Below are positions 1 through 13,713 of a DNA stretch of 14,455 nucleotides, piece by piece. The first letter of the stretch is position 1; the number at the start of each line of letters is the position of its first letter. A program made the position numbers and the translations under genes. The notes beneath the pieces were generated by a model. The model was not told the origin of the DNA, did not search any database, and saw only the letters and a list, made by a program, of their open reading frames with translations. This DNA comes from a virus: the UHGV virus genome UHGV-0102464. One strand, 5' to 3'.

Positions 1-176
1 CCGGAGGAAAACATGGTCAGGCAAAAGTGTAGCGGTATTAGGCGCAGCTATTTAGTTTTCCATATAAAATAAATAGTTGCGATTGTCTAATCTGTTGTAG
101 TAAATGTGCAGACATTGAAAGAGAAAGACCAGGTTTTTCTTTTCTAACCGAAGGGAAGAAAAGCAAGGGGAAACCG

Positions 177-220
177 GAGAAGCAAGCGCAGCGGCTTCGC
201 AGAGTTAGCCCTTGCTTCTC
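177..220. repeat. GC-rich inverted repeat (10-bp arms GAGAAGCAAG / CTTGCTTCTC, 24-nt spacer) within AT-rich non-coding flank
   Basis: Read directly: arms at 177-186 and 211-220 are exact reverse complements. No T-run follows on either strand, so it is not an obvious intrinsic terminator. Function unknown. Confidence 0.5.
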
Positions 221-930
221 TTATAATTGGCATTATTCATTCAAGAACAATAGGATCTTCGCTTGTACAAGCGAAGCTATAATAAAAACAATCAATTAAT
301 TATTTTAAAAGTATTAAACAAGAACCTATTGACATTCATAAAATACAAGTTATTTATAATGTATGCCATAAATAAAAAGTTTTATGTCATATGTATCCTG
401 CACTATGTGCAGTTAATGTACCACTTGTCCCATAGATGGGAATATTGGAAAGGTTACTTTGTTTTGAAGTAGCCTTTCGTCCTTCAATATTAACGATTAC
501 TTATTGCTATTACCAAGTCCAGTCGAATCGAAGAACATCTTTTATCTGAAACGACTCCTAATACCCGGTTAAAGCCACAATAACTCTCGCATACGTAGAC
601 CAAAGAAAAATTATGATATTAAATATGTGATTTTTTTTAGTGTTAAGTTGAATAATTAAATACTGGAGAGTTTTCTGTGCACTACCAATTGCTGGTTCAT
701 CTGTTCTGCCGCTGATGTTTCTGACGAATCTCCCGGTGACACAGAACTGTCCCTCTCTACCAGCCTTTATTCGACTCAATGTCCGGCTGCTGATACGCAG
801 TTATCCCTTCGTATCAATGACTGACACTTAAACGTAATGCTTTGGTTGCTGGCGTATCTGACAGCTTCTTCGGCGTGAAGGTCGTTGTGTAAGTATACTT
901 CTTGGTTTATTTAGGCTATATAAAACATGA

Positions 931-1827
931 CTATGACTTGCTGTTTTCAGTAAGAGTCTTATCATCCAAAGAATTTATTCTAGAAATTCTTTTTAACTCA
1001 TTAAGATAATCAACCTCGTTTTCTAAGAACCAATGAAGAACTTTAGAATTGCCAAGTAATTTATTAATATATGACTGGATTATAACGAATTTCAACATAT
1101 CTGAACCATACTCGGTTTGAAGCTTTTTCGTTTCTTCCGAAGTTGTTGCCATTTCTTGTTCCAGACGAAGTATGGTTTTTTTTATATCCTTTTTATAGGG
1201 AGTGTTTTTCCCTTTATTTACTATCATCGATGCCGGTGTTGCATCCAAGATGCTCATTGCAAATTTTTTACTATAATTATCAAAATTAATCATTGTACCG
1301 ACTGCTTCAATTTGGCGAATTGGCTTCATTTTCCTCAAAACGTCAAATGTAGCCTTAGGTATAGGTTTATCAGAAAGTTTCGCAATTACACTTGGATCTA
1401 TGCCGTTCATCACATTCGCTTTATCTTTTATGGCATCAACAGATATGCCCAAAGCAGCACTAAGTTTTTCAATTGATACTTTTGCCAGAGACTTAATTAT
1501 CATTCTATGTTCTTCAACTACATTTATATGATTCACTTGTTTGTTAGGAGTGAAAGCATCATCTATGCTCGAAAGTATACATGGGGCTTTTTCTATACCT
1601 AAGTCTTTTAAAGCCTCAACCCTTAAATGGCCATCAAGTATCTTAGTGACATCTTTATCTTTGTCATAGAATACTATTATTGGTTCAATAATACCTAAGC
1701 TTTCGATAGAGGTAACTATTTGATGATATTTATGGCTTCGCTTTACGTTTTCTAATAATTCCTTAGATGGAATTAACTTATTAGTTTCCAGGTAAATAAA
1801 ATTATCGCCAAAACGTATCTGAATCAT
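931..1827 (-). CDS. ParB/Srx-fold (ParBc-like) domain protein, 298 aa, paralog of the upstream gene
   Basis: ORF track 931..1827. The ATG at 1827-1825 overlaps the stop of the upstream gene (ATGA), indicating translational coupling. The N-terminal ~100 aa fit the ParB N-terminal pattern (..SIESLGIIEPIIVF..ILDGHLRVEALKDLGIEKAPCIL..), followed by an HTH-like stretch (KLSAALGISVDAIKDK). The C-terminal ~150 aa are unassigned. Very AT-rich. Confidence 0.7.
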   Translation of the reverse strand: MIQIRFGDNFIYLETNKLIPSKELLENVKRSHKYHQIVTSIESLGIIEPIIVFYDKDKDVTKILDGHLRVEALKDLGIEKAPCILSSIDDAFTPNKQVNHINVVEEHRMIIKSLAKVSIEKLSAALGISVDAIKDKANVMNGIDPSVIAKLSDKPIPKATFDVLRKMKPIRQIEAVGTMINFDNYSKKFAMSILDATPASMIVNKGKNTPYKKDIKKTILRLEQEMATTSEETKKLQTEYGSDMLKFVIIQSYINKLLGNSKVLHWFLENEVDYLNELKRISRINSLDDKTLTENSKS

Positions 1828-2719
1828 TTTAATACCTCTTTGTTTACTGGGGTTAATATCTGAGATGGTAGTTCTGAAAGATTCTCTTGTTCAAGTATAT
1901 GTTGAAAGCTTTTATTCATCATTATGATGTTAAAAATCTCATTTACTATTAGTAGGTTGGTTTTTATGAATTTTGAGTTGTTATAAACAGATTTATGTTC
2001 AGCGATACTATTTTCATAAAGCTCAATCAACTCCTCTGCAGTCATCCTTTTTGATGGTTTGTGATAATAAAATCCGGCTGCTTTTGCACCTTTATTCCCA
2101 ACTGTTCTTTGATTTAGAATGTGTTTTATCTTTATAATGTCCCGACTTTTTATTAATTTTTTATCATATGCTTCGGTAAGAATATCTTGTGCTTCCTCAG
2201 TTTCACATCTTGCAAATTGCACTGCGAGATACAGAGGCAAATTACCCCGTTCGACTGCTGAGAGAAGTTTATGCTCTCCCTTATCAAGTAGCATATTAAT
2301 ACTGCTCACCCAGTTCGATGAATATCCAGTAATCTCACTTATTTCGGAGTCTGAAAGTCCTCTGATTTTCATGTCTTTAATCACCTGTAATAACTCATTA
2401 GAACGTGGTCTTCTCCTTGCAATGTTTTCAACTAAACTCATAACGTAAGCATCTTCTTCTGATACATCTCTTATAATTGCTGGAATAATAGTTTCACCTA
2501 ATGCAACGAGAGCCTCTATTCTCCCTTGACCACAAATTAAAGCATATTTGAAATCGCCTTCATCAATAGCTCTTACGCTTATAGGCTTGCTTAATCCTCT
2601 TTTTTTATGCTTTCCTTTATTTCTTCATGCACTAACTTATTTCTTGTTCGTGGGTTAAGAAATTTTATTTTTGCAATCTCAATTTGAATTATTGGGAATT
2701 CATTTTTTTCAGGCAGCAT
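1824..2719 (-). CDS. ParB/Srx-fold (ParBc-like) domain protein interrupted by a frame change at an A7 homopolymer; full length (~298 aa) only with a -1 frameshift or a 1-nt tract length change
   Basis: The track ORF 1824..2441 (205 aa) begins MSLVENIARRRP.., which is the middle of a ParB domain. ParB homology continues upstream of that ATG in the same frame (RGLSKPISVRAIDEGDFKYALICGQGRIEALVALGETIIPAIIRDVSEEDAYV) up to a stop at 2627-2625, with no in-frame start. A second register begins at ATG 2719-2717, with a GAGGG Shine-Dalgarno about 6 nt upstream and overlapping the last codons of the recombinase gene. It reads MLPEKNEFPIIQIEIAKIKFLNPRTRNKLVHEEIKESIKK and then stops at 2593-2591. The two registers meet in the A7 run (T7 at 2600-2606 on the + strand). 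The joined protein aligns colinearly with the downstream paralog. Confidence 0.6.
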
Positions 2720-4265
2720 ATAGTTCCCTCACTTTCATGCGAGTAATAATTTGTAGAAGTTTATCAAGATTATCAAATCTATAGAGATCTAATCGAATGT
2801 TGTTTGTTTCCGTCATGCACATTTTATTATATTCGTTTTCAATCTTTGGTATGATATAAAAATCAAGAGGTGAAATATTTTGTGAATTCATTCGTATAAC
2901 AATTGTTATGTCTGCTTTCTGTGAGTTATCAAACCGGACTTTCCATCTAAGTTTACCTGATTTCATATGTATGCATTTAGTAACAAGGACGGAAATTAAA
3001 AACTCATCATTGATGTAAAGCATTGGGGCATATTTATACTCGTCTATATGACAGTTACTTTTTAAAATTTCACCCTTAAAATCCTCAATTATCTCTGAGT
3101 GAAATGATCTTAGTGCTTCATTTATTTTGAGATAGCTGTAATCATGTTCTGGCTTATAACCAATCAAAGTATATGCTCTTAAAAGACCACCAAATCGGGT
3201 TCTATAAACAGAAGATGAAGGGCCTGTATCATCTTCATCAATGATAAAGCCTGATAGTTTTCCATTAGATTCTAATTTTTGTTTTAGTTTTTCTAATAGA
3301 TCTTCATTAGTCAAATGAATGGATCGGAGCTGAATTATTTCTTGAGCTTTATTGTGTTTTTTCTTTGAAATAATAGGTTTATATGCCTTGTCACATCTAA
3401 CCCATTCATGTTTGGGGTTTTTTACAAGCCTACTTTTTAATTTAGATGAGGTTTTGTTATATATGTTGTTTCCAATATATTTTTCATTTGTCAAAATTTG
3501 ATGTATTTTTGCACGAGTCCATAATGTTCCATTTTCTGCAGGTATGTTCTGTTCATTTAATCTCTCAGCAATAATGAATTCTGGGACGTTATTATCTATA
3601 AAGAGATCATATATTCTATTTACAATTTTTATTTCATTTTTTGGTCCCGGAATTAATATTACCCTATCTGTTTGAATACTCTTTCTTTTGCGGAAACTCA
3701 ATATTTCTTTAGCTATGCCATTTTCGTCTACTAAAAGACGTCTCAGCCCATAACCAGCCATACCGCCTTGATGATAACCAAGCTTTATTAAATTTACTTG
3801 CCCTATAAATACCTTTTCAGATAAATTCCTGCTGTGATATGCAGCACTAGATCTTTTTATATTCAGTATAACAGAGGACTCTAAAGGGAAATCTTTAGTG
3901 GGTATAGGTTCGGAACAATATATAAGATCTACACCATTTCTCTCAAATAGAAAGGAATAATATGCCGCTTCATCACTATTTTGAAAACGACCAAAACGGC
4001 TCACATCATAAAATAATACAGCCTGTATATCTATTTTCTTTTGTTCTACATCGCTAAGTAACTGCTGCAAAGAATGCCTGCCTACGATACTGACTCCGCT
4101 CTTACCTGCATCATCGTAGGTATAAGCGATTTCCATATTGTTCTTTTCAGCATAATCTTTGATATATTCGGACTGATTATGTAAAGAATATTGCTGATGG
4201 TCGGTAGACATCCTCAAGTACTGCGCGACCCTAACTCTATGATTTTTGTCATTTTCGCTAGCCAT
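2709..4265 (-). CDS. Large serine recombinase (resolvase/invertase catalytic domain + recombinase domain; C-terminal half divergent)
   Basis: 518-aa ORF with an AGGT Shine-Dalgarno about 7 nt upstream of ATG 4265-4263. N-terminus carries the serine-recombinase catalytic motifs: VAQYLRMSTDHQ (Y-x-R-x-S-T-x-x-Q with nucleophile Ser), DDAGKSG, and VLFYDVSRFGR. A recombinase-domain pattern follows (..LIPGPKNEIKIVNRIYDLF..IAERLNEQNIPAENGTLWTRAKIHQILTNEKYIGNNIY..HEWVRCDKAYKPIISKKKHNKAQEI). I saw no CxxC zinc-ribbon pairs in the C-terminal ~220 aa. Confidence 0.85.
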   Translation of the reverse strand: MASENDKNHRVRVAQYLRMSTDHQQYSLHNQSEYIKDYAEKNNMEIAYTYDDAGKSGVSIVGRHSLQQLLSDVEQKKIDIQAVLFYDVSRFGRFQNSDEAAYYSFLFERNGVDLIYCSEPIPTKDFPLESSVILNIKRSSAAYHSRNLSEKVFIGQVNLIKLGYHQGGMAGYGLRRLLVDENGIAKEILSFRKRKSIQTDRVILIPGPKNEIKIVNRIYDLFIDNNVPEFIIAERLNEQNIPAENGTLWTRAKIHQILTNEKYIGNNIYNKTSSKLKSRLVKNPKHEWVRCDKAYKPIISKKKHNKAQEIIQLRSIHLTNEDLLEKLKQKLESNGKLSGFIIDEDDTGPSSSVYRTRFGGLLRAYTLIGYKPEHDYSYLKINEALRSFHSEIIEDFKGEILKSNCHIDEYKYAPMLYINDEFLISVLVTKCIHMKSGKLRWKVRFDNSQKADITIVIRMNSQNISPLDFYIIPKIENEYNKMCMTETNNIRLDLYRFDNLDKLLQIITRMKVRELYAA

Positions 4266-4435
4266 GCACGAAACCTCATGGGTGATTCAATACAATGTAG
4301 AGGATAAAATTGATCAAATTTTAACCGAATTCAACTGTTTTATCATTGATTAGAGCGAATTTGGTAGATCTTCGAGGTGTATGATAATCGAGAAGAGATG
4401 TGAATTATTTAGCTGATATGACCGACAGCTTTCGT

Positions 4436-4485
4436 TATGTGGACTCAATGTCCCCATTTGTAAATGGCTATGCTTAGTCCACATA
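4436..4485. repeat. Nested palindrome: 10-bp inverted repeat TATGTGGACT / AGTCCACATA enclosing inner palindrome CCATTT-GT-AAATGG
   Basis: Read directly: outer arms at 4436-4445 and 4476-4485, inner palindrome at 4454-4467. It lies in the intergenic region between the integrase stop (4548) and the recombinase start (4265). No flanking T-run, so a protein-binding or recombination site is more likely than a terminator. Confidence 0.5.
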
Positions 4486-4547
4486 GGTTAATGGTGTGAT
4501 TATTAATTCTTTAACTAAATCAAGATAGTTAATCCATCATGGGAGAG

Positions 4548-5777
4548 TTATGCGGCAATAACTTTGCATTTTTGAGACGAAACATAGTCACTCCACCATT
4601 GCATGAGAACCACCCGTTCAGTGAGATACTCTGCACGATTGTAGGCTGCAATTATTTCATCTTTCTTCGAGTGGGCAAGGGCGGCTTCTAAGACATCAGT
4701 CCTAAACTTGCCAGACTCCTCAGCAGCCGTTCTAGCAATGGATCGCATACCGTGAGCTACAAGCTCACCTCCGAAGCCCATACGGATTATGGCCGCATTA
4801 GCTGTTTGTTCATGCATGTGATTGAGTGGAGCTTTGATACTGGGGAACACCCACTCTCTATGCCCGCTGATGACTTTCATTAAATCCAAAACTCGCAAAG
4901 CTTCTTTGCTCAGTGGAACTTTGTGAGGCTTCTTCATTTTCATAAACTCCGCCGGGATGTTCCACATGCCAGTTTCAATATCAATATCTGACCATCTTGT
5001 GCGAACAGCTTCACCTGGGCGAACCCATGTGAGAAGTTGCCACTCAATCAGTAGCCTTGTTTCCAAACGGATAGAAGCATTGTTTAGAGCAACCAAGAAG
5101 CGAGGGAGTTCGGAAGGGGGTAATGCTGGCATATTCTGTTTTTTTGGCTTGCTGAACCGTTGCCCCAGGTTGTCTGCCGGGTTGAATTCTATGAGTTCTT
5201 CTGTTGCTGCATAGCGGAAAATTTCATTCAGGCGGGATATGATGCGGCGAAGTGTTTCAAGGACACCTCGTTTTTCTATGGGTTCTAAATGCTGTTTAAG
5301 CATTTTAGGGCGAATCTCCTTAATTGGGGTATCACCCAATGTGGAAAAGATATTTCTCTCTAGGCTTCGCCAGATGTCGTTAGCATGATCTTGGGAGATG
5401 CCTGACGTTTTGACTTTCTCATCAAGCCACTTCTTGGCTACTGCTTGAAATGTATGTTCCGTGGCATCTTTCAGTGCATTGGCTTTTTGGTTGTTATGAA
5501 CTTGGGGGTCTATACCATTTGTAAGCAACGACAAGTATTCATCACGTAAAGCTCGTGCCTTCGCAAGTGTAAGGTGAGGATAGGTTCCTAAGCTCACCTT
5601 AGTTCGCTTTTTGGTCACAGGCACTGCATATCTGAAATACCAATTTTTCTTCCCTCCCTTCGCCAGGGGAGCGATTCGCAACAGCAAACCATCGCCGTCA
5701 AAAAGGTTAACCTCTTTTTCGGCAGGTTTGGTGCTTTTGATTTCAGTGTCAGTGAGCTTCTTAGCGATTTTGGCCAT
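4548..5777 (-). CDS. int: Tyrosine site-specific integrase, P4/IntA (CP4-57-like) family
   Basis: The track ORF runs to 5858, but the conserved N-terminus MAKIAKKLTDTEIKSTKPAEKEVNLFDGDGLLLRIAPLAKGGKKNWYFRY (arm-type DNA-binding domain typical of P4-like integrases) starts at ATG 5777-5775, so I call that start. The C-terminal catalytic region carries the HxxR box (LVAHGMRSIARTAAEE) and the catalytic tyrosine context (IIAAYNRAEYLTERV). Confidence 0.9.
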   Translation of the reverse strand: MAKIAKKLTDTEIKSTKPAEKEVNLFDGDGLLLRIAPLAKGGKKNWYFRYAVPVTKKRTKVSLGTYPHLTLAKARALRDEYLSLLTNGIDPQVHNNQKANALKDATEHTFQAVAKKWLDEKVKTSGISQDHANDIWRSLERNIFSTLGDTPIKEIRPKMLKQHLEPIEKRGVLETLRRIISRLNEIFRYAATEELIEFNPADNLGQRFSKPKKQNMPALPPSELPRFLVALNNASIRLETRLLIEWQLLTWVRPGEAVRTRWSDIDIETGMWNIPAEFMKMKKPHKVPLSKEALRVLDLMKVISGHREWVFPSIKAPLNHMHEQTANAAIIRMGFGGELVAHGMRSIARTAAEESGKFRTDVLEAALAHSKKDEIIAAYNRAEYLTERVVLMQWWSDYVSSQKCKVIAA

Positions 5778-5875
5778 GTTTGGGACCCTCGATTTTAGGA
5801 CCCATCTTCGTGGGTCCCATTCAGGGTGCCATAACTCGTAGTTCTCAGCAATTCTCACTAGACTACAATAGACGT

Positions 5876-5908
5876 AAAAAAGCCCGCAGAGCTTGTGCTG
5901 TGCGGGCT
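5876..5908 (-). terminator. Rho-independent terminator (minus strand) between the ssrA stub and the integrase
   Basis: On the minus strand: 8-bp stem AAGCCCGC/GCGGGCTT-type (plus 5881-5888 pairs with 5901-5908) with a 12-nt loop, followed by a U-run (A-run 5876-5880 on the plus strand). Confidence 0.55.
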
Positions 5909-5943
5909 TAGTAGACTTTACTGAACTTCAGTACATCAATATT

Positions 5944-5978
5944 TGGTGGAGCTGGCGGGAGTTGAACCCGTGTCCGAA
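5944..5978 (-). other. ssrA: 3'-terminal fragment of ssrA (tmRNA): attachment-site core copy, not an intact gene
   Basis: The reverse complement of 5944-5978 reads TTCGGACACGGGTTCAACTCCCGCCAGCTCCACCA. As I recall it, the 3' end of enterobacterial tmRNA is ..TTCGGACGCGGGTTCAACTCCCGCCAGCTCCACCA, so this matches with one mismatch. Similarity stops immediately upstream, and no tmRNA 5' end (GGGGCUG.. acceptor strand) or tag-peptide region lies within 400 nt, so it is a stub. Confidence 0.75.
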
Positions 5979-6303
5979 TAATGCTTAACCTATTGAATAT
6001 TAATGTTTTGTCTTTTTTGAAAGGCCTCAAGTGCATTTTACGTGCATATCGTGGTCCCTCTAACGTCCTGATTCCGTCCAACATTTTGAAATACTCACGA
6101 CGCTACAGAGCTGCTGAAATGGCGGTTTTCCCGTCGTATTCAGCCAGGTATTTACCGTAATTGCGGAACAGCATTTCCGGCCCTTTATGCCCCATCTGCC
6201 CGGCAAGCCAGAAAAGGTTTACGCCCTGGCTAATGTGTCTGGTGGCGAATGTGTGGCGGGTCTGGTACGGGGTACGGTAGCGACACTTTTTTGCACGTTA
6301 GTG

Positions 6304-6687: not shown

Positions 6688-6713
6688 AGGCCACCTCACG
6701 GTGGCCTTTTTTG
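6688..6713 (+). terminator. Rho-independent terminator upstream of lysis cassette 1
   Basis: AGGCCACC (6688-6695), loop TCAC, GGTGGCCT (6700-6707), then a T-run to 6712. Confidence 0.75.
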
Positions 6714-6761
6714 TTTCCCCTCAACCTTCTGAGAGGGTCAACAGCAATAAGAGGGGGCAAA

Positions 6762-7166
6762 ATGTCCGCAGAACCGATATCTGCAACGGTAACGGCAGGC
6801 GTGGCCGCCGGCACTACCGGAATCACCTTCGCGACGATGTTTCCAGAAGCGACACCCGCTGTAATGCTTTGCTCACTTGCCGGGGCTGCTCTTTATGTCC
6901 TGAGCAGTGAAGACCACAAAATCTGGAAGCAGATACTGTTCGCGCTCATCTCATTCATTGGTGGAGTCTACTGCGCCGGAACAGCATCTGAAATCATCGC
7001 TGCGCTAATCAATGCGGCATTAAGTCACCTTTCTCCTCCAGTTTCCGTGAAGGTATCTCCAGCTATGGGTGCCCTGCTGGCTTCATCGGTTTCTGTCACC
7101 ATCCTGGCTCGCATCCTCAAACGGTCGAAGACAGGAGACTTACCCGGATTGAAGGGGGAAGAATGA
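6762..7166 (+). CDS. Putative holin / lysis-associated membrane protein (134 aa)
   Basis: ATG 6762 with a GAGGGGG Shine-Dalgarno. Hydrophobic segments (..AGVAAGTTGITFATMF.., ..ILFALISFIGGVYCAGTA.., ..MGALLASSVSVTILARIL..). First gene of a lysis cassette; stop overlaps the next start (ATGA). Confidence 0.5.
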   Translation: MSAEPISATVTAGVAAGTTGITFATMFPEATPAVMLCSLAGAALYVLSSEDHKIWKQILFALISFIGGVYCAGTASEIIAALINAALSHLSPPVSVKVSPAMGALLASSVSVTILARILKRSKTGDLPGLKGEE

Positions 7167-7444
7167 CGTGGCAAACACTGATCCTGAACATTAACGCTGT
7201 TGCATGCATCCTCATCACCATACGCCTGATGTTCTTCAGGAAGCGGAGCTTACGGCGCCGCCGTCTGATGGAGTTTCTGGCCTATGGGCTGATCCTCGCT
7301 CCAGCGTTTACCGCTTTCCGCATCTGGCATGGTGATTACGTGCAGGTCGACTACGGAGAGTTGGTCGTCAACCTTGTTGTCTGCATAGCTGTATGGCGAG
7401 CACGTGGCAACATCGCAAGAATAGCAGGGGAAAGCACAACGTGA
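7163..7444 (+). CDS. Small membrane protein (93 aa), holin/antiholin-like
   Basis: ATG 7163 overlaps the upstream stop, with a GAAGGGGG Shine-Dalgarno. Two hydrophobic helices separated by a basic stretch (RKRSLRRRRL). Lies between the putative holin and the endolysin. Confidence 0.4.
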   Translation: MTWQTLILNINAVACILITIRLMFFRKRSLRRRRLMEFLAYGLILAPAFTAFRIWHGDYVQVDYGELVVNLVVCIAVWRARGNIARIAGESTT

Positions 7445-8070
7445 ACCAATCACAATTTCAAAAGGCGGCTGGCATTAGCGCCGGGCTCGCTTCGCGCTGG
7501 TTTTCGCATATCGATGCTGCAGTGAAGGAATTCGGCATAACCGCGCCGCTCGATCAGGCCATGTTTATCGCGCAGATGGGCCATGAGTCCGGCGGTTTCA
7601 CCCGGCTGGTGGAAAACCTGAACTATGCGGCAGAAAACCTGGTACCTACGTTCGGCAAGCATCGCATTACTGCGCAGCAGGCCGCCGCACTCGGCAGAAC
7701 GGCAACGCAACCGGCAAATCAGAAAGCGATAGCCAATCTGGTTTACGGCGGTGAGTGGGGCAAAAAGAACCTGGGCAACCAGGTTGCTGGTGATGGCTGG
7801 AAATATCGCGGCCGAGGCCTTAAGCAAATCACCGGGCTTAGCAACTATCGCAGTTGCGGCCAGGCTCTCAAACTGGATCTGGTTTCGTATCCAGAACTAC
7901 TGGAACGAGATGAATACGCTGCGCGCTCCGCCGCATGGTTCTACGTCTCGCACGGATGCCTGCTCCATTCAGGCGATGTGGAGCGCGTCACGCTGCTTAT
8001 CAATGGCGGACGTAACGGGCTGGATAAACGCCGCGCGCTGTTTAACCTGGCGAAGTCTGTGCTGGTGTGA
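7441..8070 (+). CDS. Endolysin, glycoside hydrolase family 19 (chitinase-like lysozyme)
   Basis: GH19 hallmark motifs: FIAQMGHESGGF and YRGRGLKQITGLSNYR (compare the GRGPxQ(L/I)(S/T)xNY motif of GH19 chitinases). Start placed at GTG 7441, which overlaps the upstream stop (GTGA); the alternative ATG 7393 lacks a Shine-Dalgarno. Confidence 0.8.
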   Translation: MNQSQFQKAAGISAGLASRWFSHIDAAVKEFGITAPLDQAMFIAQMGHESGGFTRLVENLNYAAENLVPTFGKHRITAQQAAALGRTATQPANQKAIANLVYGGEWGKKNLGNQVAGDGWKYRGRGLKQITGLSNYRSCGQALKLDLVSYPELLERDEYAARSAAWFYVSHGCLLHSGDVERVTLLINGGRNGLDKRRALFNLAKSVLV

Positions 8071-8077
8071 GGTCACT

Positions 8078-8347
8078 ATGGGATTAGAAACAATCGTCGG
8101 TATTGCTGCCCTGATAATGGCAGCTATCGCTGGTGCTTTTGGCATTGGTCATTCACGCGGCACCAGCAAAGCGGAAGCCAAAGCCGATCAGCAGCGCACT
8201 GAAGAACGTGCAACAGCTACTGAAGCTGTTGCTGAACGCCGGGTAGAGACAACAAAAGGAGCCAGGGATGTACAGCAAACTGTTAATCATCTTCCTGATG
8301 ACGATGTTGACCGTGAGTTGCGCGAAAACTTTACCCGCAAAACCTGA
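8078..8347 (+). CDS. Rz-like inner-membrane spanin (i-spanin) component, copy 1
   Basis: ATG 8078, 8 nt after the endolysin stop. N-terminal transmembrane helix (IVGIAALIMAAIAGAFGIG) then a charged helical region. The track ORF 7751..8347 is the same frame extended upstream into the endolysin and is rejected. Assignment is by position and architecture. Confidence 0.6.
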   Translation: MGLETIVGIAALIMAAIAGAFGIGHSRGTSKAEAKADQQRTEERATATEAVAERRVETTKGARDVQQTVNHLPDDDVDRELRENFTRKT

Positions 8348-8489
8348 ATTAACGGACACAGCCTGTGACTGGGTGGACATTATCTACCTCACTGAACACG
8401 ATATTGCCGTGCTGGATAAGCAGACGAAGCGGGACATATTGGTGCACAATAAATCAGTGCAGGCTAACTGTGCAAAAAAAATAAATTGA
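8268..8489 (+). CDS. Rz1-like outer-membrane lipoprotein spanin (o-spanin), overlapping the 3' end of the Rz-like gene in another frame, copy 1
   Basis: ATG 8268 with an AAAAGGAG Shine-Dalgarno. Signal peptide plus lipobox-like ..MTMLTVSCAK; several Cys. The ORF begins inside the Rz-like gene and extends past it (P2 lysB/lysC-like overlap). Its sequence is conserved in copy 2. Confidence 0.6.
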   Translation: MYSKLLIIFLMTMLTVSCAKTLPAKPELTDTACDWVDIIYLTEHDIAVLDKQTKRDILVHNKSVQANCAKKIN

Positions 8490-8590
8490 AAATGAGAAAT
8501 GAAAGTAGTAAATATGTGCCAAGCTGTGATGAAACCAGCAATGAAGCACGTTCTTTAATCCGCATTCTCTGAAAAAGAGAAAGAATTATA

Positions 8591-8618
8591 AGCCTCGGTT
8601 TAATACCGGGGCTTTTTT
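8591..8618 (+). terminator. Rho-independent terminator after lysis cassette 1
   Basis: AGCCTCGG (8591-8598), loop TTTAATA, CCGGGGCT (8606-8613), then a T-run to 8618. Confidence 0.7.
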
Positions 8619-8768
8619 GTATCTGCATTTCACCGCGCACCGCAGCGCATTCAATCACGTCGAACCCAACCTTTTGGAATGAGCCGTTGAGGAGTCAGTT
8701 AGTGCTGGCGAGCCTCGACGGGCTGATTTCCTATGCGACAAAGGTTCATTTCAAAGAAGGTAAACGCA

Positions 8769-9356
8769 ATGCACGACTCAACAAGCGGGTTGGTCTTTGG
8801 AGTTGGCAAACTCGATGTACACCCCGTTATCAATAAAGGGGTAAAACTCAGGTCATACAGAGTATGGTTTGGGATGCTGAAAAGATGCTACGGAAAGGGA
8901 ACGGCATTTAAAAGTGAATACCAAGGATGCTCAGTCGATGAGCAATGGCACAAGTTCAGTAATTTTCAGCAATTTTACGACAAGAATTACTTCGAAGGCG
9001 CCGAGTTAGACAAGGATTTGCTTTATCTGGGTAATAAAGTTTACTCAAAAGATAGGTGCGTGTTCATCCCGTCATTCCTCAACGCCTTTATCACTGTTAG
9101 GCCGCCAAGAAACAACAACCTTCCGATTGGCGTATACCAAGTTAGCAACAGCCGGAAGTATCAATCAGAAATACAAGTTAATGGTGAAAGAAAATATCTA
9201 GGACTCTTTGAAGATCCGCATGAAGCTCACTCCGCTTGGTTTAATGAAAAGCTGAATATGGCAATTTCCTACAAAGAGTTGTGCGATTCTCTGCACCCTG
9301 ATTTGTATGGCGGACTCATAACAAAAATAGAAAGCATGCGAGTCTATCCGGATTAA
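8769..9356 (+). CDS. Hypothetical protein with AP2-like DNA-binding domain in C-terminal half
   Basis: ATG 8769 with a GAAGG Shine-Dalgarno 8 nt upstream (the track start 8733 has none). The C-terminal stretch IGVYQVSNSRKYQSEIQVNGERKYLGLFEDPHEAHSAWFNEK resembles the AP2 domain found in phage HNH/AP2 proteins. The N-terminal half (..SYRVWFGMLKRCYGK..) is unassigned. Confidence 0.5.
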   Translation: MHDSTSGLVFGVGKLDVHPVINKGVKLRSYRVWFGMLKRCYGKGTAFKSEYQGCSVDEQWHKFSNFQQFYDKNYFEGAELDKDLLYLGNKVYSKDRCVFIPSFLNAFITVRPPRNNNLPIGVYQVSNSRKYQSEIQVNGERKYLGLFEDPHEAHSAWFNEKLNMAISYKELCDSLHPDLYGGLITKIESMRVYPD

Positions 9357-9481
9357 TAAATTAATAATTCTACATTTTCAGGGCCCTTGGGAATCACCCT
9401 CGACGCTTTGTTGGTAAATCAGCCCGACGGCCCTGACCTTCTCACACACAGCTTCCCGATCTTTCATCGGAGGCGGTAACT

Positions 9482-9793
9482 ATGGCTAAGCGTATGCAAG
9501 ACAAAGAGAGCATTGCCGGGATGTCCTGGCTGGTTCTGCTGATCATTGCTTGCTGGGGTGGACTTGTCCGCTACCTGATAGATGTGAAGCAGAGCAAGGC
9601 AACATGGAGCTTGATCAATGCTCTTGCCCAAATGGTGGTTTCAGGGTTTACCGGCGTTATTGCTGGCCTGGTGAGCATTGAAAGCGGACTGAGCATTTAC
9701 ATGATTCTGGCAACCGCGGGGATAAGCGGCGCGATGGGCTCCGTAGCGCTCACGTATTTCTGGGAACGAATCACCGGAGTGAAAGCACAATGA
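9482..9793 (+). CDS. Holin (103 aa), lysis cassette 2
   Basis: ATG 9482 with a GGAGG Shine-Dalgarno 8 nt upstream. Hydrophobic helices; stop overlaps the endolysin start (ATGA). Confidence 0.6.
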   Translation: MAKRMQDKESIAGMSWLVLLIIACWGGLVRYLIDVKQSKATWSLINALAQMVVSGFTGVIAGLVSIESGLSIYMILATAGISGAMGSVALTYFWERITGVKAQ

Positions 9794-10329
9794 CAGCAGA
9801 CCAGATTATCGAGGGGATCCTCGGCAAGGAGGATGGTTATGTCGATCATCCGTCGGATAAAGGCGGGCCGACCCGCTGGGGCATCACGCAGACCACCGCC
9901 CGTGCACATGGCTACACCGGTGATATGCGGAACCTGCCCAGGGAAACAGCAAAGCAAATCCTGCTGAGCGATTACTGGACCGGCCCCCGGTTTGACCAGG
10001 TGGCAGCTCTATCTACGTTACTGGCAGATGAGCTTTGCGACACTGGCGTGAACATGGGGCCATCTGTAGCCAGTAAGTTTTTCCAGCGCTGGCTGACCGC
10101 AATGAATATGCGCGGAAAGCTGTATCCCGATCTGATTCCGGATGGCGCCATTGGTCCCCGAACCATCACCGCGCTTAAGGGATACCTTTCCGCCCGCGGG
10201 AAAGAGGGTGAACAGGTTCTGTTGCGTGCGCTGAACTGCAGCCAGGGTGCCAGATACCTCGAACTGGCGGAGGGCCGCGAAGCCAACGAGGATTTTCTCT
10301 ACGGCTGGGTTAAGGAGCGTGTCCTGTGA
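9790..10329 (+). CDS. Endolysin, glycoside hydrolase family 108 N-terminal domain + peptidoglycan-binding C-terminal domain
   Basis: N-terminal EDGYVDHPSDKGGPTRWGIT matches the GH108 signature (EGGYVDDPxDxGGxTxxGIT). C-terminal ..IPDGAIGPRTITALKGYL.. resembles the PG-binding-3 type domain. Confidence 0.8.
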   Translation: MTADQIIEGILGKEDGYVDHPSDKGGPTRWGITQTTARAHGYTGDMRNLPRETAKQILLSDYWTGPRFDQVAALSTLLADELCDTGVNMGPSVASKFFQRWLTAMNMRGKLYPDLIPDGAIGPRTITALKGYLSARGKEGEQVLLRALNCSQGARYLELAEGREANEDFLYGWVKERVL

Positions 10330-10670
10330 AGATGATCATTTTCGCTTTGCTTGTGCTGGTGGCTGTGCTCGTTCTGTTACTTCTGCGCAAATATACCCGG
10401 CTGGAGTTCGTAGGGCATGCCAGCTTGCTGCTGAAAACGTGGTCTGTAAAGCTGGGAGCTATCGGCGCGCTGGTTGGTGTATGGGCGCAGTCGTTCCCGG
10501 ATGCTGCGCTGCACGCCTGGGCGGTGCTGCCGCCGGATATCAAAAACATCCTGCCGCCAAACATCGTTGCGTTGATTAGCCCTGCGCTGGTGGTGCTGGC
10601 CGTACTATCGCAATACGTACGCCAGCCAGCATTGAAAGAAAAGGCCGACGAACTGAAGGAGCAGCAATGA
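10326..10670 (+). CDS. Membrane protein between endolysin and spanins (LysA/antiholin-like position)
   Basis: Start GTG 10326 (overlaps the endolysin stop) or ATG 10332, with an AAGGAG Shine-Dalgarno at 10310-10315. Strongly hydrophobic (IIFALLVLVAVLVLLLL.., ..LVALISPALVVLAVL..). Stop overlaps the Rz-like start (ATGA). Confidence 0.5.
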   Translation: MKMIIFALLVLVAVLVLLLLRKYTRLEFVGHASLLLKTWSVKLGAIGALVGVWAQSFPDAALHAWAVLPPDIKNILPPNIVALISPALVVLAVLSQYVRQPALKEKADELKEQQ

Positions 10671-10942
10671 GCTTTGAAATTATCGCGGGACTGGTGGTCG
10701 TCATCCTGGGTGCTATTGCTGGCGCGTTCGGCATTGGTCATGCTCGCGGGGCCAGTAAGGCGAAAGCCAAAGCTGATCAGCAACGTACCGAAGAGAACGC
10801 CGCTGCTACTGTCGCCGCGGCAGAACGCCGTGCTGAAGTCACGAAAGGGGCCAGCGATGTACAGGAAGACGTTAAGCGTATGGGCGATGACGATGTTGAT
10901 CGGGAGTTGCGCGAAAAGTTTACCCGCCCCGGTAGTCGTTGA
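10667..10942 (+). CDS. Rz-like i-spanin component, copy 2
   Basis: ATG 10667 with a GAAGGA Shine-Dalgarno. Roughly two-thirds to three-quarters identical to copy 1 by eye (AIAGAFGIGH..KADQQRTEE..DDDVDRELRE.FTR conserved). Confidence 0.6.
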   Translation: MSFEIIAGLVVVILGAIAGAFGIGHARGASKAKAKADQQRTEENAAATVAAAERRAEVTKGASDVQEDVKRMGDDDVDRELREKFTRPGSR

Positions 10943-11081
10943 CACGGCCTGCAGCTGGGTGCGGATCATCTACCTGACTGACCACGATATCGATGTGTTG
11001 GATAAGCAGACCAAGCGCGACATTCTGGCGCACAACAAAGCAGTGCAGGCCAACTGCCAGAGCATTACCCCTACTCATTGA
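10857..11081 (+). CDS. Rz1-like o-spanin lipoprotein, copy 2 (overlapping and extending past the Rz-like gene)
   Basis: ATG 10857 with an AAAGGGG Shine-Dalgarno. MYRKTLSVWAMTMLIGSCAK.. then DTACSWVRIIYLTDHDIDVLDKQTKRDILAHNKAVQANC, closely matching copy 1. The track ORF 10674..11081 is the same frame with a spurious upstream extension. Confidence 0.6.
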   Translation: MYRKTLSVWAMTMLIGSCAKSLPAPVVVDTACSWVRIIYLTDHDIDVLDKQTKRDILAHNKAVQANCQSITPTH

Positions 11082-12487: not shown

Positions 12488-12721
12488 ATGCGCCTGACTG
12501 TTCTCAGTAACGACCCTGGTGAACGTATATGGCCTAGCCGTGAACGCATAACGGTGTACCTCAACGGTGTCGAGGTCAAGTACGTTTTTACCGCCGATGA
12601 TCAGAAGGGCGAAGTTATCGCTGCTACGCTCGACTGTCTTGGCAACCTCATAGCCGAGAATGGCGAGATTAAGCGCCAGAAGCTGTTAGGTCAGGTGAGG
12701 ATAGAGCGATGCCCGCGCTAA
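12488..12721 (+). CDS. Hypothetical protein (77 aa) immediately upstream of and overlapping the HNH endonuclease gene
   Basis: ATG 12488 with a GGAGG Shine-Dalgarno just upstream; overlaps the HNH start by 13 nt. Confidence 0.5.
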   Translation: MRLTVLSNDPGERIWPSRERITVYLNGVEVKYVFTADDQKGEVIAATLDCLGNLIAENGEIKRQKLLGQVRIERCPR

Positions 12722-13059
12722 TACCCCGCGCCTGCCGTAAGCGTGGATGTCCTGGAACTACCACAGACCGCTTAGGCTACTGCGAGAAGCACCGCAACGA
12801 AGGCTGGCAACAGCATCAACAGGGAAAGAGTCGCCACGAGCGTGGCTACGGTAGCCAGTGGGATATCAGGCGTGCGCGCATCCTGAAACGCGACAACCAT
12901 TTATGCCAGAACTGCCTTCGCAGCGGGCGAGCTGTCGCAGCAAAGACGGTTGACCACATCAAGGCCAAGGCTCATGGGGGTACCGATGACGATTCGAACC
13001 TCGAAAGCCTGTGCTGGCCTTGCCATCGAACGAAAACCGGGCGCGAACGCATAAAGTGA
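12709..13059 (+). CDS. HNH endonuclease (phage packaging-associated type)
   Basis: Cys/His-rich: ..CRKRGCPGTT..GYCEKH.. and the HNH core ..VDHIKAKAHGGTDDDSNLESLCWPCH... AGGTGAGGA Shine-Dalgarno before ATG 12709. Position directly upstream of the terminase small subunit is typical. Confidence 0.85.
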   Translation: MPALIPRACRKRGCPGTTTDRLGYCEKHRNEGWQQHQQGKSRHERGYGSQWDIRRARILKRDNHLCQNCLRSGRAVAAKTVDHIKAKAHGGTDDDSNLESLCWPCHRTKTGRERIK

Positions 13060-13215: not shown

Positions 13216-13713
13216 ATGCCAGGACCACCGAAAACCCCGACACATCTGGCTTTAGTGAAGGGGAACCCATCCAAGCGCCCGATCAATAAGAACGAGCCAA
13301 AACCCCCGTCAGGGGTCCCCCCAATACCGAAACATTTCGATAAACAGGGTAAGTACTGGTTCAAACGGATTGGTGAGGAACTTGATGCCGTCGGCGTGTT
13401 GACCACGCTGGATGCTAAAGCGCTGGAGTTGTTGATAGAAGCCTATGTTGAATACCGGCATCACTGCGACACGCTTGATCGTGAAGGTTACACCTATGCC
13501 GTCTACAGCGAAGATGATTCAGATGAAGGAGGGGAGCGGGAAATCAGAATGATCAAACCGCACCCTGCAGCAGTCATGAAGGCTGACGCGTGGAAACGGA
13601 TCAGAGCGATGCTGAGCGAATTCGGCATGACACCTGCCAGCCGATCAAAGGTTGGTGCAAAAGACCCGGCAGAAGCCGACCCACTGGAAGAATTTCTTAA
13701 AAAGCGCAAATGA
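13216..13713 (+). CDS. Terminase small subunit (P27-family-like)
   Basis: ATG 13216 with a TAGGAG Shine-Dalgarno. ..LDAKALELLIEAYVEY.. pattern and placement between the HNH gene and the large terminase gene. Confidence 0.75.
   Translation: MPGPPKTPTHLALVKGNPSKRPINKNEPKPPSGVPPIPKHFDKQGKYWFKRIGEELDAVGVLTTLDAKALELLIEAYVEYRHHCDTLDREGYTYAVYSEDDSDEGGEREIRMIKPHPAAVMKADAWKRIRAMLSEFGMTPASRSKVGAKDPAEADPLEEFLKKRK

Follow-up and report, generated by a model that had tools for sequence, protein, structure and literature searches.

A widespread operon of a large serine recombinase and two ParB-like proteins on bacterial mobile islands

The virus genome UHGV-0102464 (14,455 nucleotides, the whole of which is called the window below) carries on its minus strand three adjacent genes, A, B and C, coding for a large serine recombinase (LSR) and two ParB/Srx-type proteins. 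Comparison with bacterial genomes indicated that this trio is a widespread, self-contained and conserved operon on mobile islands. We read it, tentatively and with less than even confidence, as a recombinase directed by a pair of ParB-like proteins and serving a mobile element, not chromosome or plasmid partition. The original prediction, made from the letters of the window alone, had proposed the three genes as a candidate module and had set conservation of the trio as a unit as a test beforehand; the A-B-C order was recovered in 72 of 80 species-representative loci, far beyond E. coli. The three genes are:

2709-4265, minus strand: gene A, large serine recombinase of 518 amino acids with Resolvase and Recombinase domains
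1824-2719, minus strand: gene B, ParB_N and RepB-type, frameshifted here (896 nt, not a multiple of 3)
931-1827, minus strand: gene C, predicted degenerate ParB/Srx-type paralog of B, 298 amino acids, with PF07506 and a helix-turn-helix (HTH)

Conservation and genomic setting of the trio

The 80 loci were drawn from more than 570 confirmed relatives, and seven of the eight without the full order were interrupted by contig ends. Two of three large homology searches mostly yielded near-identical enterobacterial sequences. Distant relatives, with about 45% identity in A and about 35% in B and C, were found in Alpha-, Beta- and Gammaproteobacteria, Acidobacteria, Myxococcales, Desulfosarcina and Bdellovibrionaceae, and the same order was present on pAtC58 and other megaplasmids of Agrobacterium, Sinorhizobium and Sphingobium. 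Of 5426 complete E. coli genomes, 655 (12%) carried the trio, the laboratory strains REL606 and BL21(DE3) among them, so that it is directly testable in the best-studied bacterium. It also occurs in hundreds of proteobacterial species and has no family name. All E. coli copies were chromosomal, single and at one locus, with none of the 655 on a plasmid, and proteins with 96-100% identity were found in Klebsiella, Enterobacter, Salmonella, Citrobacter and Cronobacter. Plasmid records with the trio numbered 71 of 72,556 (0.1%). Only 1 of 50,697 phage records contained it, and a phage integrase module was rejected on this count.

The three genes had been described as translationally linked, and both stop-start overlaps are present in the window as claimed. 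The start codon of B (ATG, 2719-2717) overlaps the stop of A by 11 nt and stands behind a GAGGGA Shine-Dalgarno sequence, and the ATGA at 1827-1824 is common to the stop of B and the start of C. The linkage extends across the family, where short overlaps prevail at both junctions: stop and start overlapped by 4 or 1 nt at the A/B junction in 60 of 72 loci and at the B/C junction in 47 of 72. A fused B-C open reading frame (ORF) was found in locus L007, and protein P0371 has recombinase domains followed by a RepB domain. If real, these fusions argue for physical interaction. The L007 fusion (7942-9726; NZ_CP110863.1) is a 594-amino-acid ORF. The record that bears the trio there, 13 kb long, high in GC and unannotated, has the label of a Lactiplantibacillus plantarum plasmid; it probably represents a contaminant contig, and the fusion is possibly an error.

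The absence of a ParA-type ATPase partner, noted at first for the window, was confirmed in the wider set. No ORF with a ParA-type Walker A motif (KGGxGK[ST]) was found within 6 kb in about 85 loci, and no ParA was annotated near the trio in E. coli, pAtC58 or Piscinibacter.

On chromosomal islands, Tn7-like transposons and megaplasmids, the trio sits close to the mobility genes. Within 6 kb of 22 sampled loci, the neighbours included AbiEii (four times), SoFic/Fic (four times), HipA (twice), DISARM, and type I and IIG restriction-modification (RM), together with PADLOC candidate systems, TniQ, TrbI and MobA. Ralstonia copies adjoin a methyltransferase, RelB/ParE or AAA_13, plus a second island integrase, and in a Tn7-like element (TnsABC-TniQ) the trio comes first after TniQ. 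The left end in Enterobacteriaceae, smpB-ssrA-int-A-B-C-IS3, is constant at 96-100% identity among E. coli, Klebsiella and Salmonella. The cargo beyond this left end is swapped: type I RM with Kiwa; Mrr with a McrA-like HNH protein; a UvrA-like ABC protein with ThiF; or HNH_5/DUF5677/DUF6602.

In the tRNA-Arg variant of E. coli AR_0119, the trio was relocated along with the 3' half of int, and its right end abuts a truncated integrase gene. Carriage of the int 3' half points to homologous recombination and not to transposition mediated by A. At this locus (L009 10891-15391), 3' pieces of two P4-type integrase genes flank the trio, covering amino acids 252-436 (about 92% identity) and 343-436 (72%). 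Two enterobacterial-type relatives have a gene for a small serine recombinase of the resolvase/invertase type (about 205-220 amino acids) on the opposite strand, 0.5-1.4 kb downstream of the trio (L010 6696-7358 and L066 14658-15275). Loci L051/L052 and L056 were 93-94% identical from the start of A to about 215 nt past C, and some genomes contained paired divergent copies of the trio that were 69-88% identical. An IS-like multicopy element was rejected because E. coli has one copy per genome and the pairs elsewhere are divergent. No circular trio contigs and no terminal overlaps were found.

Domains and motifs of the three proteins

Protein A was matched by Pfam to PF00239 (Resolvase, E 7.7e-22) and PF07508 (Recombinase, E 1.3e-21) and has five cysteines with no CxxC motif, in agreement with the original description of canonical catalytic and recombinase domains without zinc-ribbon cysteines. 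It is laid out as a catalytic domain (residues 11-125), helix E (130-162), a recombinase domain (174-300), a helical region (301-402) and a beta-rich region (407-500). The nucleophile S20 lies within YLRMSTDHQ, and R18, S20, D87, R90 and R93 were invariant among 71 diverse A sequences. The recombinase domain after helix E aligns to SprA residues 189-310. An AlphaFold model from the alignment of the 71 sequences had a predicted local distance difference test (pLDDT) score of 76.9.

A zinc ribbon was sought in residues 301-518, and Pfam returned no match there at E<=10 except a weak one to HNH_repeat (PF18780); the coiled coil is also missing from A. A profile search of PDB gave nothing beyond residue ~310 or so, and the solved LSR structures (SprA, Bxb1 and phiC31) cover only about 320 columns of A. 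The C-terminal half, earlier described by what it lacks, is not featureless. It contains an HNH-repeat-like unit at residues ~313-375, inside the helical region and corresponding to the weak PF18780 match, and a conserved beta-rich domain. With the C-terminal 218 residues as query, 1585 representative clusters were matched, 651 of them at E<=1e-10. Among the relatives of this module were recombinases that repeat the ~313-375 segment four to seven times, scored as PF18780 HNH_repeat. These array-bearing relatives and the alignment of the segment place A, as judged from sequence, in a recombinase lineage in which HNH-repeat-type units, predicted to bind DNA, replace the zinc ribbon. Many proteins of about 226-236 amino acids (P0274, P0294, P0298) resemble just the C-terminal module of A, without a Pfam domain, and may be stand-alone versions or gene fragments.

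In the window, the reading frame of B closes after 42 codons (2591) and is picked up again in another frame. The following features describe this split:

2591-2719, minus strand: 42-codon ORF, remaining piece of B
1824-2441, minus strand: ORF, remaining piece of B
2600-2606, minus strand: homopolymer A7 (T7 on the plus strand), source of the frameshift in B

The homopolymer is A8 in E24377A, E94, REL606 and GF31, and the A7 form was found in none of 582 other complete E. coli genomes, which indicates either a mutation confined to this copy or a sequencing error in the homopolymer, and not phase variation; a phase-variable homopolymer was rejected accordingly. With one A added, B becomes a 298-amino-acid ParB_N and RepB protein that was 100% identical to intact homologs in tblastn. 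The repaired protein matched PF02195 (E 1.5e-13), PF07506 (E 8.4e-8) and TIGR00180 (60 bits; cut-off 58.45). The family keeps NPR, GLKxPITV, CGQGRxEA and ENxARR, the canonical nucleotide-pocket motifs of ParB, and its profile matched the structure of Spo0J (1vz0, E 6e-18) and also those of ParB, Noc, PadC-type ParB and KorB. These motifs suggest that B is a ParB-like protein with a canonical cytidine triphosphate (CTP) pocket and an HTH.

Because of the frameshift, the copy of the trio in the window is probably non-functional or mis-sequenced. Whether the module in this genome is an inactive relic, its function killed by the lesion in B, stands at about even chances; expression of C would then probably also be lowered by polarity or lost coupling. 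B is split at the A7 run, and an IS3 remnant and a tandem prophage flank the island, in keeping with a relic. The lesion is, on the other hand, a single homopolymer base unique among 582 genomes that may be a sequencing error, and both A and C are undamaged, with 100% identity to the E24377A copies by tblastn.

Protein C matched PF07506 (E 2.2e-24), with PF02195 (E 1.1e-5) just under the cut-off. In C, LDGHxR replaces GxxRxxA, and NPR and ENxxR are missing; an HTH and a RepB-type C-terminal half are present. Invariant in its family are LLDGHxR, DDExxTYNxRxNR and IQEHxMI. A single-sequence AlphaFold model of C was unusable (pLDDT 35). BLASTP aligned B and C at 30% identity over 63 amino acids only. 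Alignment of the B family with the C family by hhalign gave 97.6% probability (E 4e-12, 260 columns), which suggests that the two are ancient full-length paralogs, one canonical and one degenerate.

The original prediction had presented B and C as paralogs of about 298 amino acids each with unassigned C-terminal halves. Their paralogy holds only at the profile level, and the two are scarcely alignable pairwise. The length holds for the intact C, and for B only after repair. The C-terminal halves are not unassigned, both of them matching Pfam RepB (PF07506).

Non-coding elements and layout of the window

Candidate cis elements were found in relatives of the trio. A small HTH gene, D (about 107-132 amino acids), lies upstream of A and divergent from it in 43 of about 85 loci searched (for example L055 9302-9625 and L022 ~1640-1880), and its first codons (MGTVVPxMGTVV) overlap two 14-bp palindromes GGCACAnnTGTGCC with 21 bp spacing. 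Directly past the stop of C, 29 alphaproteobacterial loci (L016-L089; for example L017 4266-4394) have a structured element of about 110 nt, which is accompanied by a variable hairpin. The mean column identity of this 3' element is 84%, above that of coding DNA. Pairing in its five helices is 94-100%, against 32-44% in slid controls, and at eight pairs both partners have changed. With a covariance model, each locus gave a single hit to the element, in every case on the operon strand, and the rest of 1.4 Mb gave none; Rfam had no match to it. The element may act as an RNA, as hairpins in single-stranded DNA or as a protein-binding palindrome array. In Rhodobacteraceae (L051, L056, L055, L059 and others), a conserved motif of about 40 bp, CGGAAAGGAATTGCCCTTTTCCGGAAACGACTTTCCGG, with four GGAAA/TTTCC half-sites lies about 160-190 nt upstream of A in DNA that has otherwise diverged.

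The other features of the window around the trio are:

4318-4346, minus strand: candidate operon promoter, sigma-70-like ATGATA-17-TAAAAT, consensus match only
4436-4485, no strand: 50-bp imperfect dyad TATGTGGACT-N8-CCATTT-AC-AAATGG-N8-AGTCCACATA, between the integrase stop and A
881-930, minus strand: 50-nt tail past the stop of C, right-hand homology limit between the ssrA and argW copies of the module
4548-5858, minus strand: P4-type tyrosine integrase with Arm-DNA-bind_3, Phage_int_M and Phage_integrase
5944-5978, minus strand: last 35 nt of ssrA (transfer-messenger RNA, tmRNA), island attachment-site copy and end of homology with E24377A

The candidate promoter lies 53 nt upstream of the start of A, and such matches are no commoner in the region than in shuffled sequence. 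The dyad decays asymmetrically in the 94%-identical AR_0119 copy, indicating that it is not strongly constrained, and it was rejected as a conserved site. The tail after C holds a palindrome, AAGTATACTT, at 891-900, which was rejected as a special site because its count was not above chance. Repeats occurred only at chance level, and an invertible or excisable repeat-flanked segment was likewise rejected. No flanking repeats or split dyads that would mark attachment (att) sites were detected at the ends of the module, although such sites may have escaped detection.

The window holds an E. coli ssrA island and, after it, prophage DNA. Positions 136-5978 align at 99.8% identity with E. coli E24377A (L001 14637-20480), and the alignment takes in just the final 35 nt of ssrA before it stops; ssrA is annotated at L001 20446-20808. 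ARAGORN found no complete tmRNA in the window. Only the last 35 nt of ssrA being present and a prophage late region beginning at 5979, the island and the prophage lie in tandem at ssrA in this genome. RefSeq homologs of the integrase begin at 5777, which gives 409 amino acids. The GC content is 30-37% in the trio versus 44-57% in the integrase and prophage; coordinates, GC content and domain matches thus agree with the original picture of a low-GC minus-strand trio downstream of a P4-family integrase. Between int and the IS3 remnant, the only genes in the window are A, B and C. The degraded IS3-family remnant downstream of C (140-885) accompanies the trio throughout E. coli (589 genomes), and in Klebsiella an intact IS3 transposase of 370 amino acids occupies its position.

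The prophage late region includes an HNH gene (12709-13059) and a small terminase gene (13216-13713). Two successive phage lysis cassettes lie at 6711-11081, the first in the order holin, holin, GH19-type endolysin and Rz-like spanin, and the second in the order holin, endolysin, holin and spanins. An HNH endonuclease gene (8733-9356) lies between them, and the C-termini of the spanins are alike in both.

Proposed function and comparison with known systems

In the tentative reading of the trio as a ParB-pair-directed recombinase, B and C would form a heteromeric ParB-type complex that loads on DNA, or marks it, at a cis site near the operon. This complex would supply the target choice and the licensing that canonical LSRs get from their zinc-ribbon/coiled-coil domain. 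A, with all of its catalytic residues and an HNH-repeat-like unit of its own, would cut and exchange strands on mobile-element DNA. The carrying island might benefit by having its excised or tandem forms maintained or rearranged, or in conflict with competing elements. We counted for this reading the conservation of the unit, the fusions, the invariant catalytic residues, the C-terminal module in place of a zinc ribbon, the contrast between the motifs of B and C, the lack of ParA, the distribution, the linkage of the int-A-B-C backbone and the candidate cis elements.

Several observations weigh against it. Gene D and the 3' element were not found in the E. coli copy (covariance model; fold z-score -0.38), and the proposed cis site has no counterpart there. 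No recombination sites, flanking repeats or presence/absence junctions could be ascribed to A. The constant linkage to int could reflect just physical proximity in a single island lineage of recent spread, sequencing errors across overlapping genes could account for the B-C and A-B fusions, and the neighbourhood is as defence-rich as that of true defence systems. A more specific form of the proposal is doubtful: a serine recombinase would have swapped its zinc-ribbon/coiled-coil part for a ParB CTP-switch pair, one active and one degenerate, and would serve mobile islands as a ParB-guided recombinase or nuclease that fights or controls other DNA, with a structured RNA or DNA element in some lineages.

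The main rival is a new anti-phage or anti-plasmid defence system, in which the ParB-like pair would sense invading DNA or load on it and the recombinase would be the effector, cleaving both strands covalently. We consider this rather unlikely. It would explain why the 22 sampled loci lie in defence islands (AbiEii, Fic, HipA, DISARM and RM), why the trio adjoins type I RM and Kiwa in E. coli and a methyltransferase, RelB/ParE or AAA_13 in Ralstonia, and why a Tn7-like element carries it as cargo. The layout as one self-regulated operon, with the divergent HTH gene in 43 of about 85 loci, and the near absence of the trio from phages also fit. However, in Enterobacteriaceae the trio stays fixed beside int while recognised defence cargo is exchanged. 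In PADLOC-DB 2.0, A had no match, and the sole matches of B and C were to MTase_II models, owing to the ParB_N part of methyltransferase fusions; a known defence system was rejected for want of any PADLOC system match. We know of no defence system with a serine recombinase effector, which we counted against this rival. REL606 and BL21, both carriers of the trio, are classic phage-sensitive hosts, which is weak evidence in the same direction.

Of the other alternatives offered by the original prediction, neither an integrative element nor a partition or resolution cassette fits the data well. An autonomous mini integrative element of about 3.6 kb, with B and C as directionality or accessory factors like those of XisF-XisH-XisI or of an integrase with its directionality factor, is improbable. 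The trio does form a discrete block between unrelated contexts (L051/L052 vs L056), many copies lie on short contigs of 3-7 kb, some genomes have two divergent copies, and the right end of the AR_0119 module abuts a truncated integrase gene. Yet each E. coli genome has exactly one copy at one locus, no terminal repeats or split dyad sites were found at the ends of the block, its left boundary is the start codon of A and leaves no room for an att site, and circular contigs were lacking. The identity of 69-88% between paired copies rules against recent transposition, and the int 3' half taken along in AR_0119 points to homologous recombination.

A plasmid-type stabilisation cassette, in which A would resolve multimers and B and C would bind a centromere, is very improbable, for all its agreement with the Pfam/NCBI names RepB and ParB/RepB/Spo0J, the presence on Agrobacterium, Sinorhizobium and Sphingobium megaplasmids and the conserved non-coding element directly after the last ParB-like gene, the same position as that of parS (P1) and sopC (F) just after the last partition gene. 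Neither ParA nor another motor ATPase lies within 6 kb of any of the loci, no E. coli copy is on a plasmid, and only 71 of 72,556 plasmid records have the trio, which makes a partition-like role the least likely of the earlier alternatives. The host plasmids, such as pAtC58, have their own repABC, which also counts against this role. Canonical partition or repABC was rejected on the lack of ParA, the absence from plasmids in E. coli and the low equivalog scores: the RepB equivalogs TIGR03454 and NF010440 gave 35.3 bits (cut-off 201.5) and 21 bits (cut-off 522), and the Noc and PRTRC-ParB models were also far under their cut-offs. The labels 'partition protein' and 'plasmid partitioning protein RepB' are misleading on chromosomal islands that lack ParA.

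Compared with the ParB, Noc and KorB CTP-switch clamps, the B family is alike in its NPR, GxxRxxA-type (CGQGRxEA) and ENxxR motifs and its HTH, as far as sequence comparison goes. It is unlike them in having no ParA or recognised parS and in being paired with a degenerate C (DGHxR) and a recombinase. As candidates for a ParB-bound centromere, the analysis gave only the dyad at 4436-4485 and the alphaproteobacterial 3' element. With regard to the ParB component of ParABS, B has the N-terminal CTP-type domain and the HTH, and C stays under the cut-offs. If the ParB pair directs A, ParB CTP switches would control strand exchange, beyond segregation, nucleoid occlusion and silencing, and A would represent a mode of serine recombinase targeting distinct from the att-site logic of genome engineering. 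A defence role would instead make the trio the first defence system based on a serine recombinase.

Compared with known LSRs (SPbeta SprA, Bxb1, phiC31, A118, TP901-1, TnpX and CcrB), A is without the zinc ribbon and coiled coil, and by sequence none of the solved structures matches the 200 residues that follow its recombinase domain. Furthermore, A is almost never phage-borne and always co-translated with two ParB-like proteins. Serine recombinases with arrays of HNH_repeat (PF18780) behind the recombinase domain (for example P0259) share with A the two N-terminal domains and a repeat unit like its ~313-375 segment, and differ in having four to seven repeats and no beta-rich terminal domain. 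The direction or target of a recombinase is set by co-encoded partners in XisF with XisH/XisI and SprA with SprB, and by resolvase accessory sites. The idea of small co-encoded partners that steer a serine recombinase is thus shared with the trio, and structures of SprA with its recombination directionality factor were found as well. The partners in those systems are, however, not of the ParB/Srx fold, and the recombinases keep the zinc-ribbon/coiled-coil part that the partners target.

A description of the trio was not found in the full-text literature, and none of the matching papers listed mentions PF07506; subscription-only papers lay outside the search, and a prior description is possible. 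The original statement that the combination matches no characterised system was upheld by PADLOC, NCBIfam and the open full-text literature. The trio is made of known parts in a new combination and is apparently uncharacterised.

The nearest described arrangement is the Dehalococcoides ssrA-island module, which comprises DsiB, the small recombinase DsiA, a RecF-like protein, a ParBc protein of 210 amino acids, Mom and a primase-like protein, and in which the serine recombinase itself was proposed to be the ssrA integrase (PMC3146451). The DsiB/DsiA module resembles the trio in combining an LSR with a ParBc protein at the ssrA-proximal end of islands with variable cargo (PMC3146451). Compared by description, the six-gene set is not present in the window (PMC3146451). 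A P4-type tyrosine integrase takes the position of the proposed ssrA integrase here, and the single ParBc protein is replaced by two ParB/RepB paralogs of 298 amino acids.

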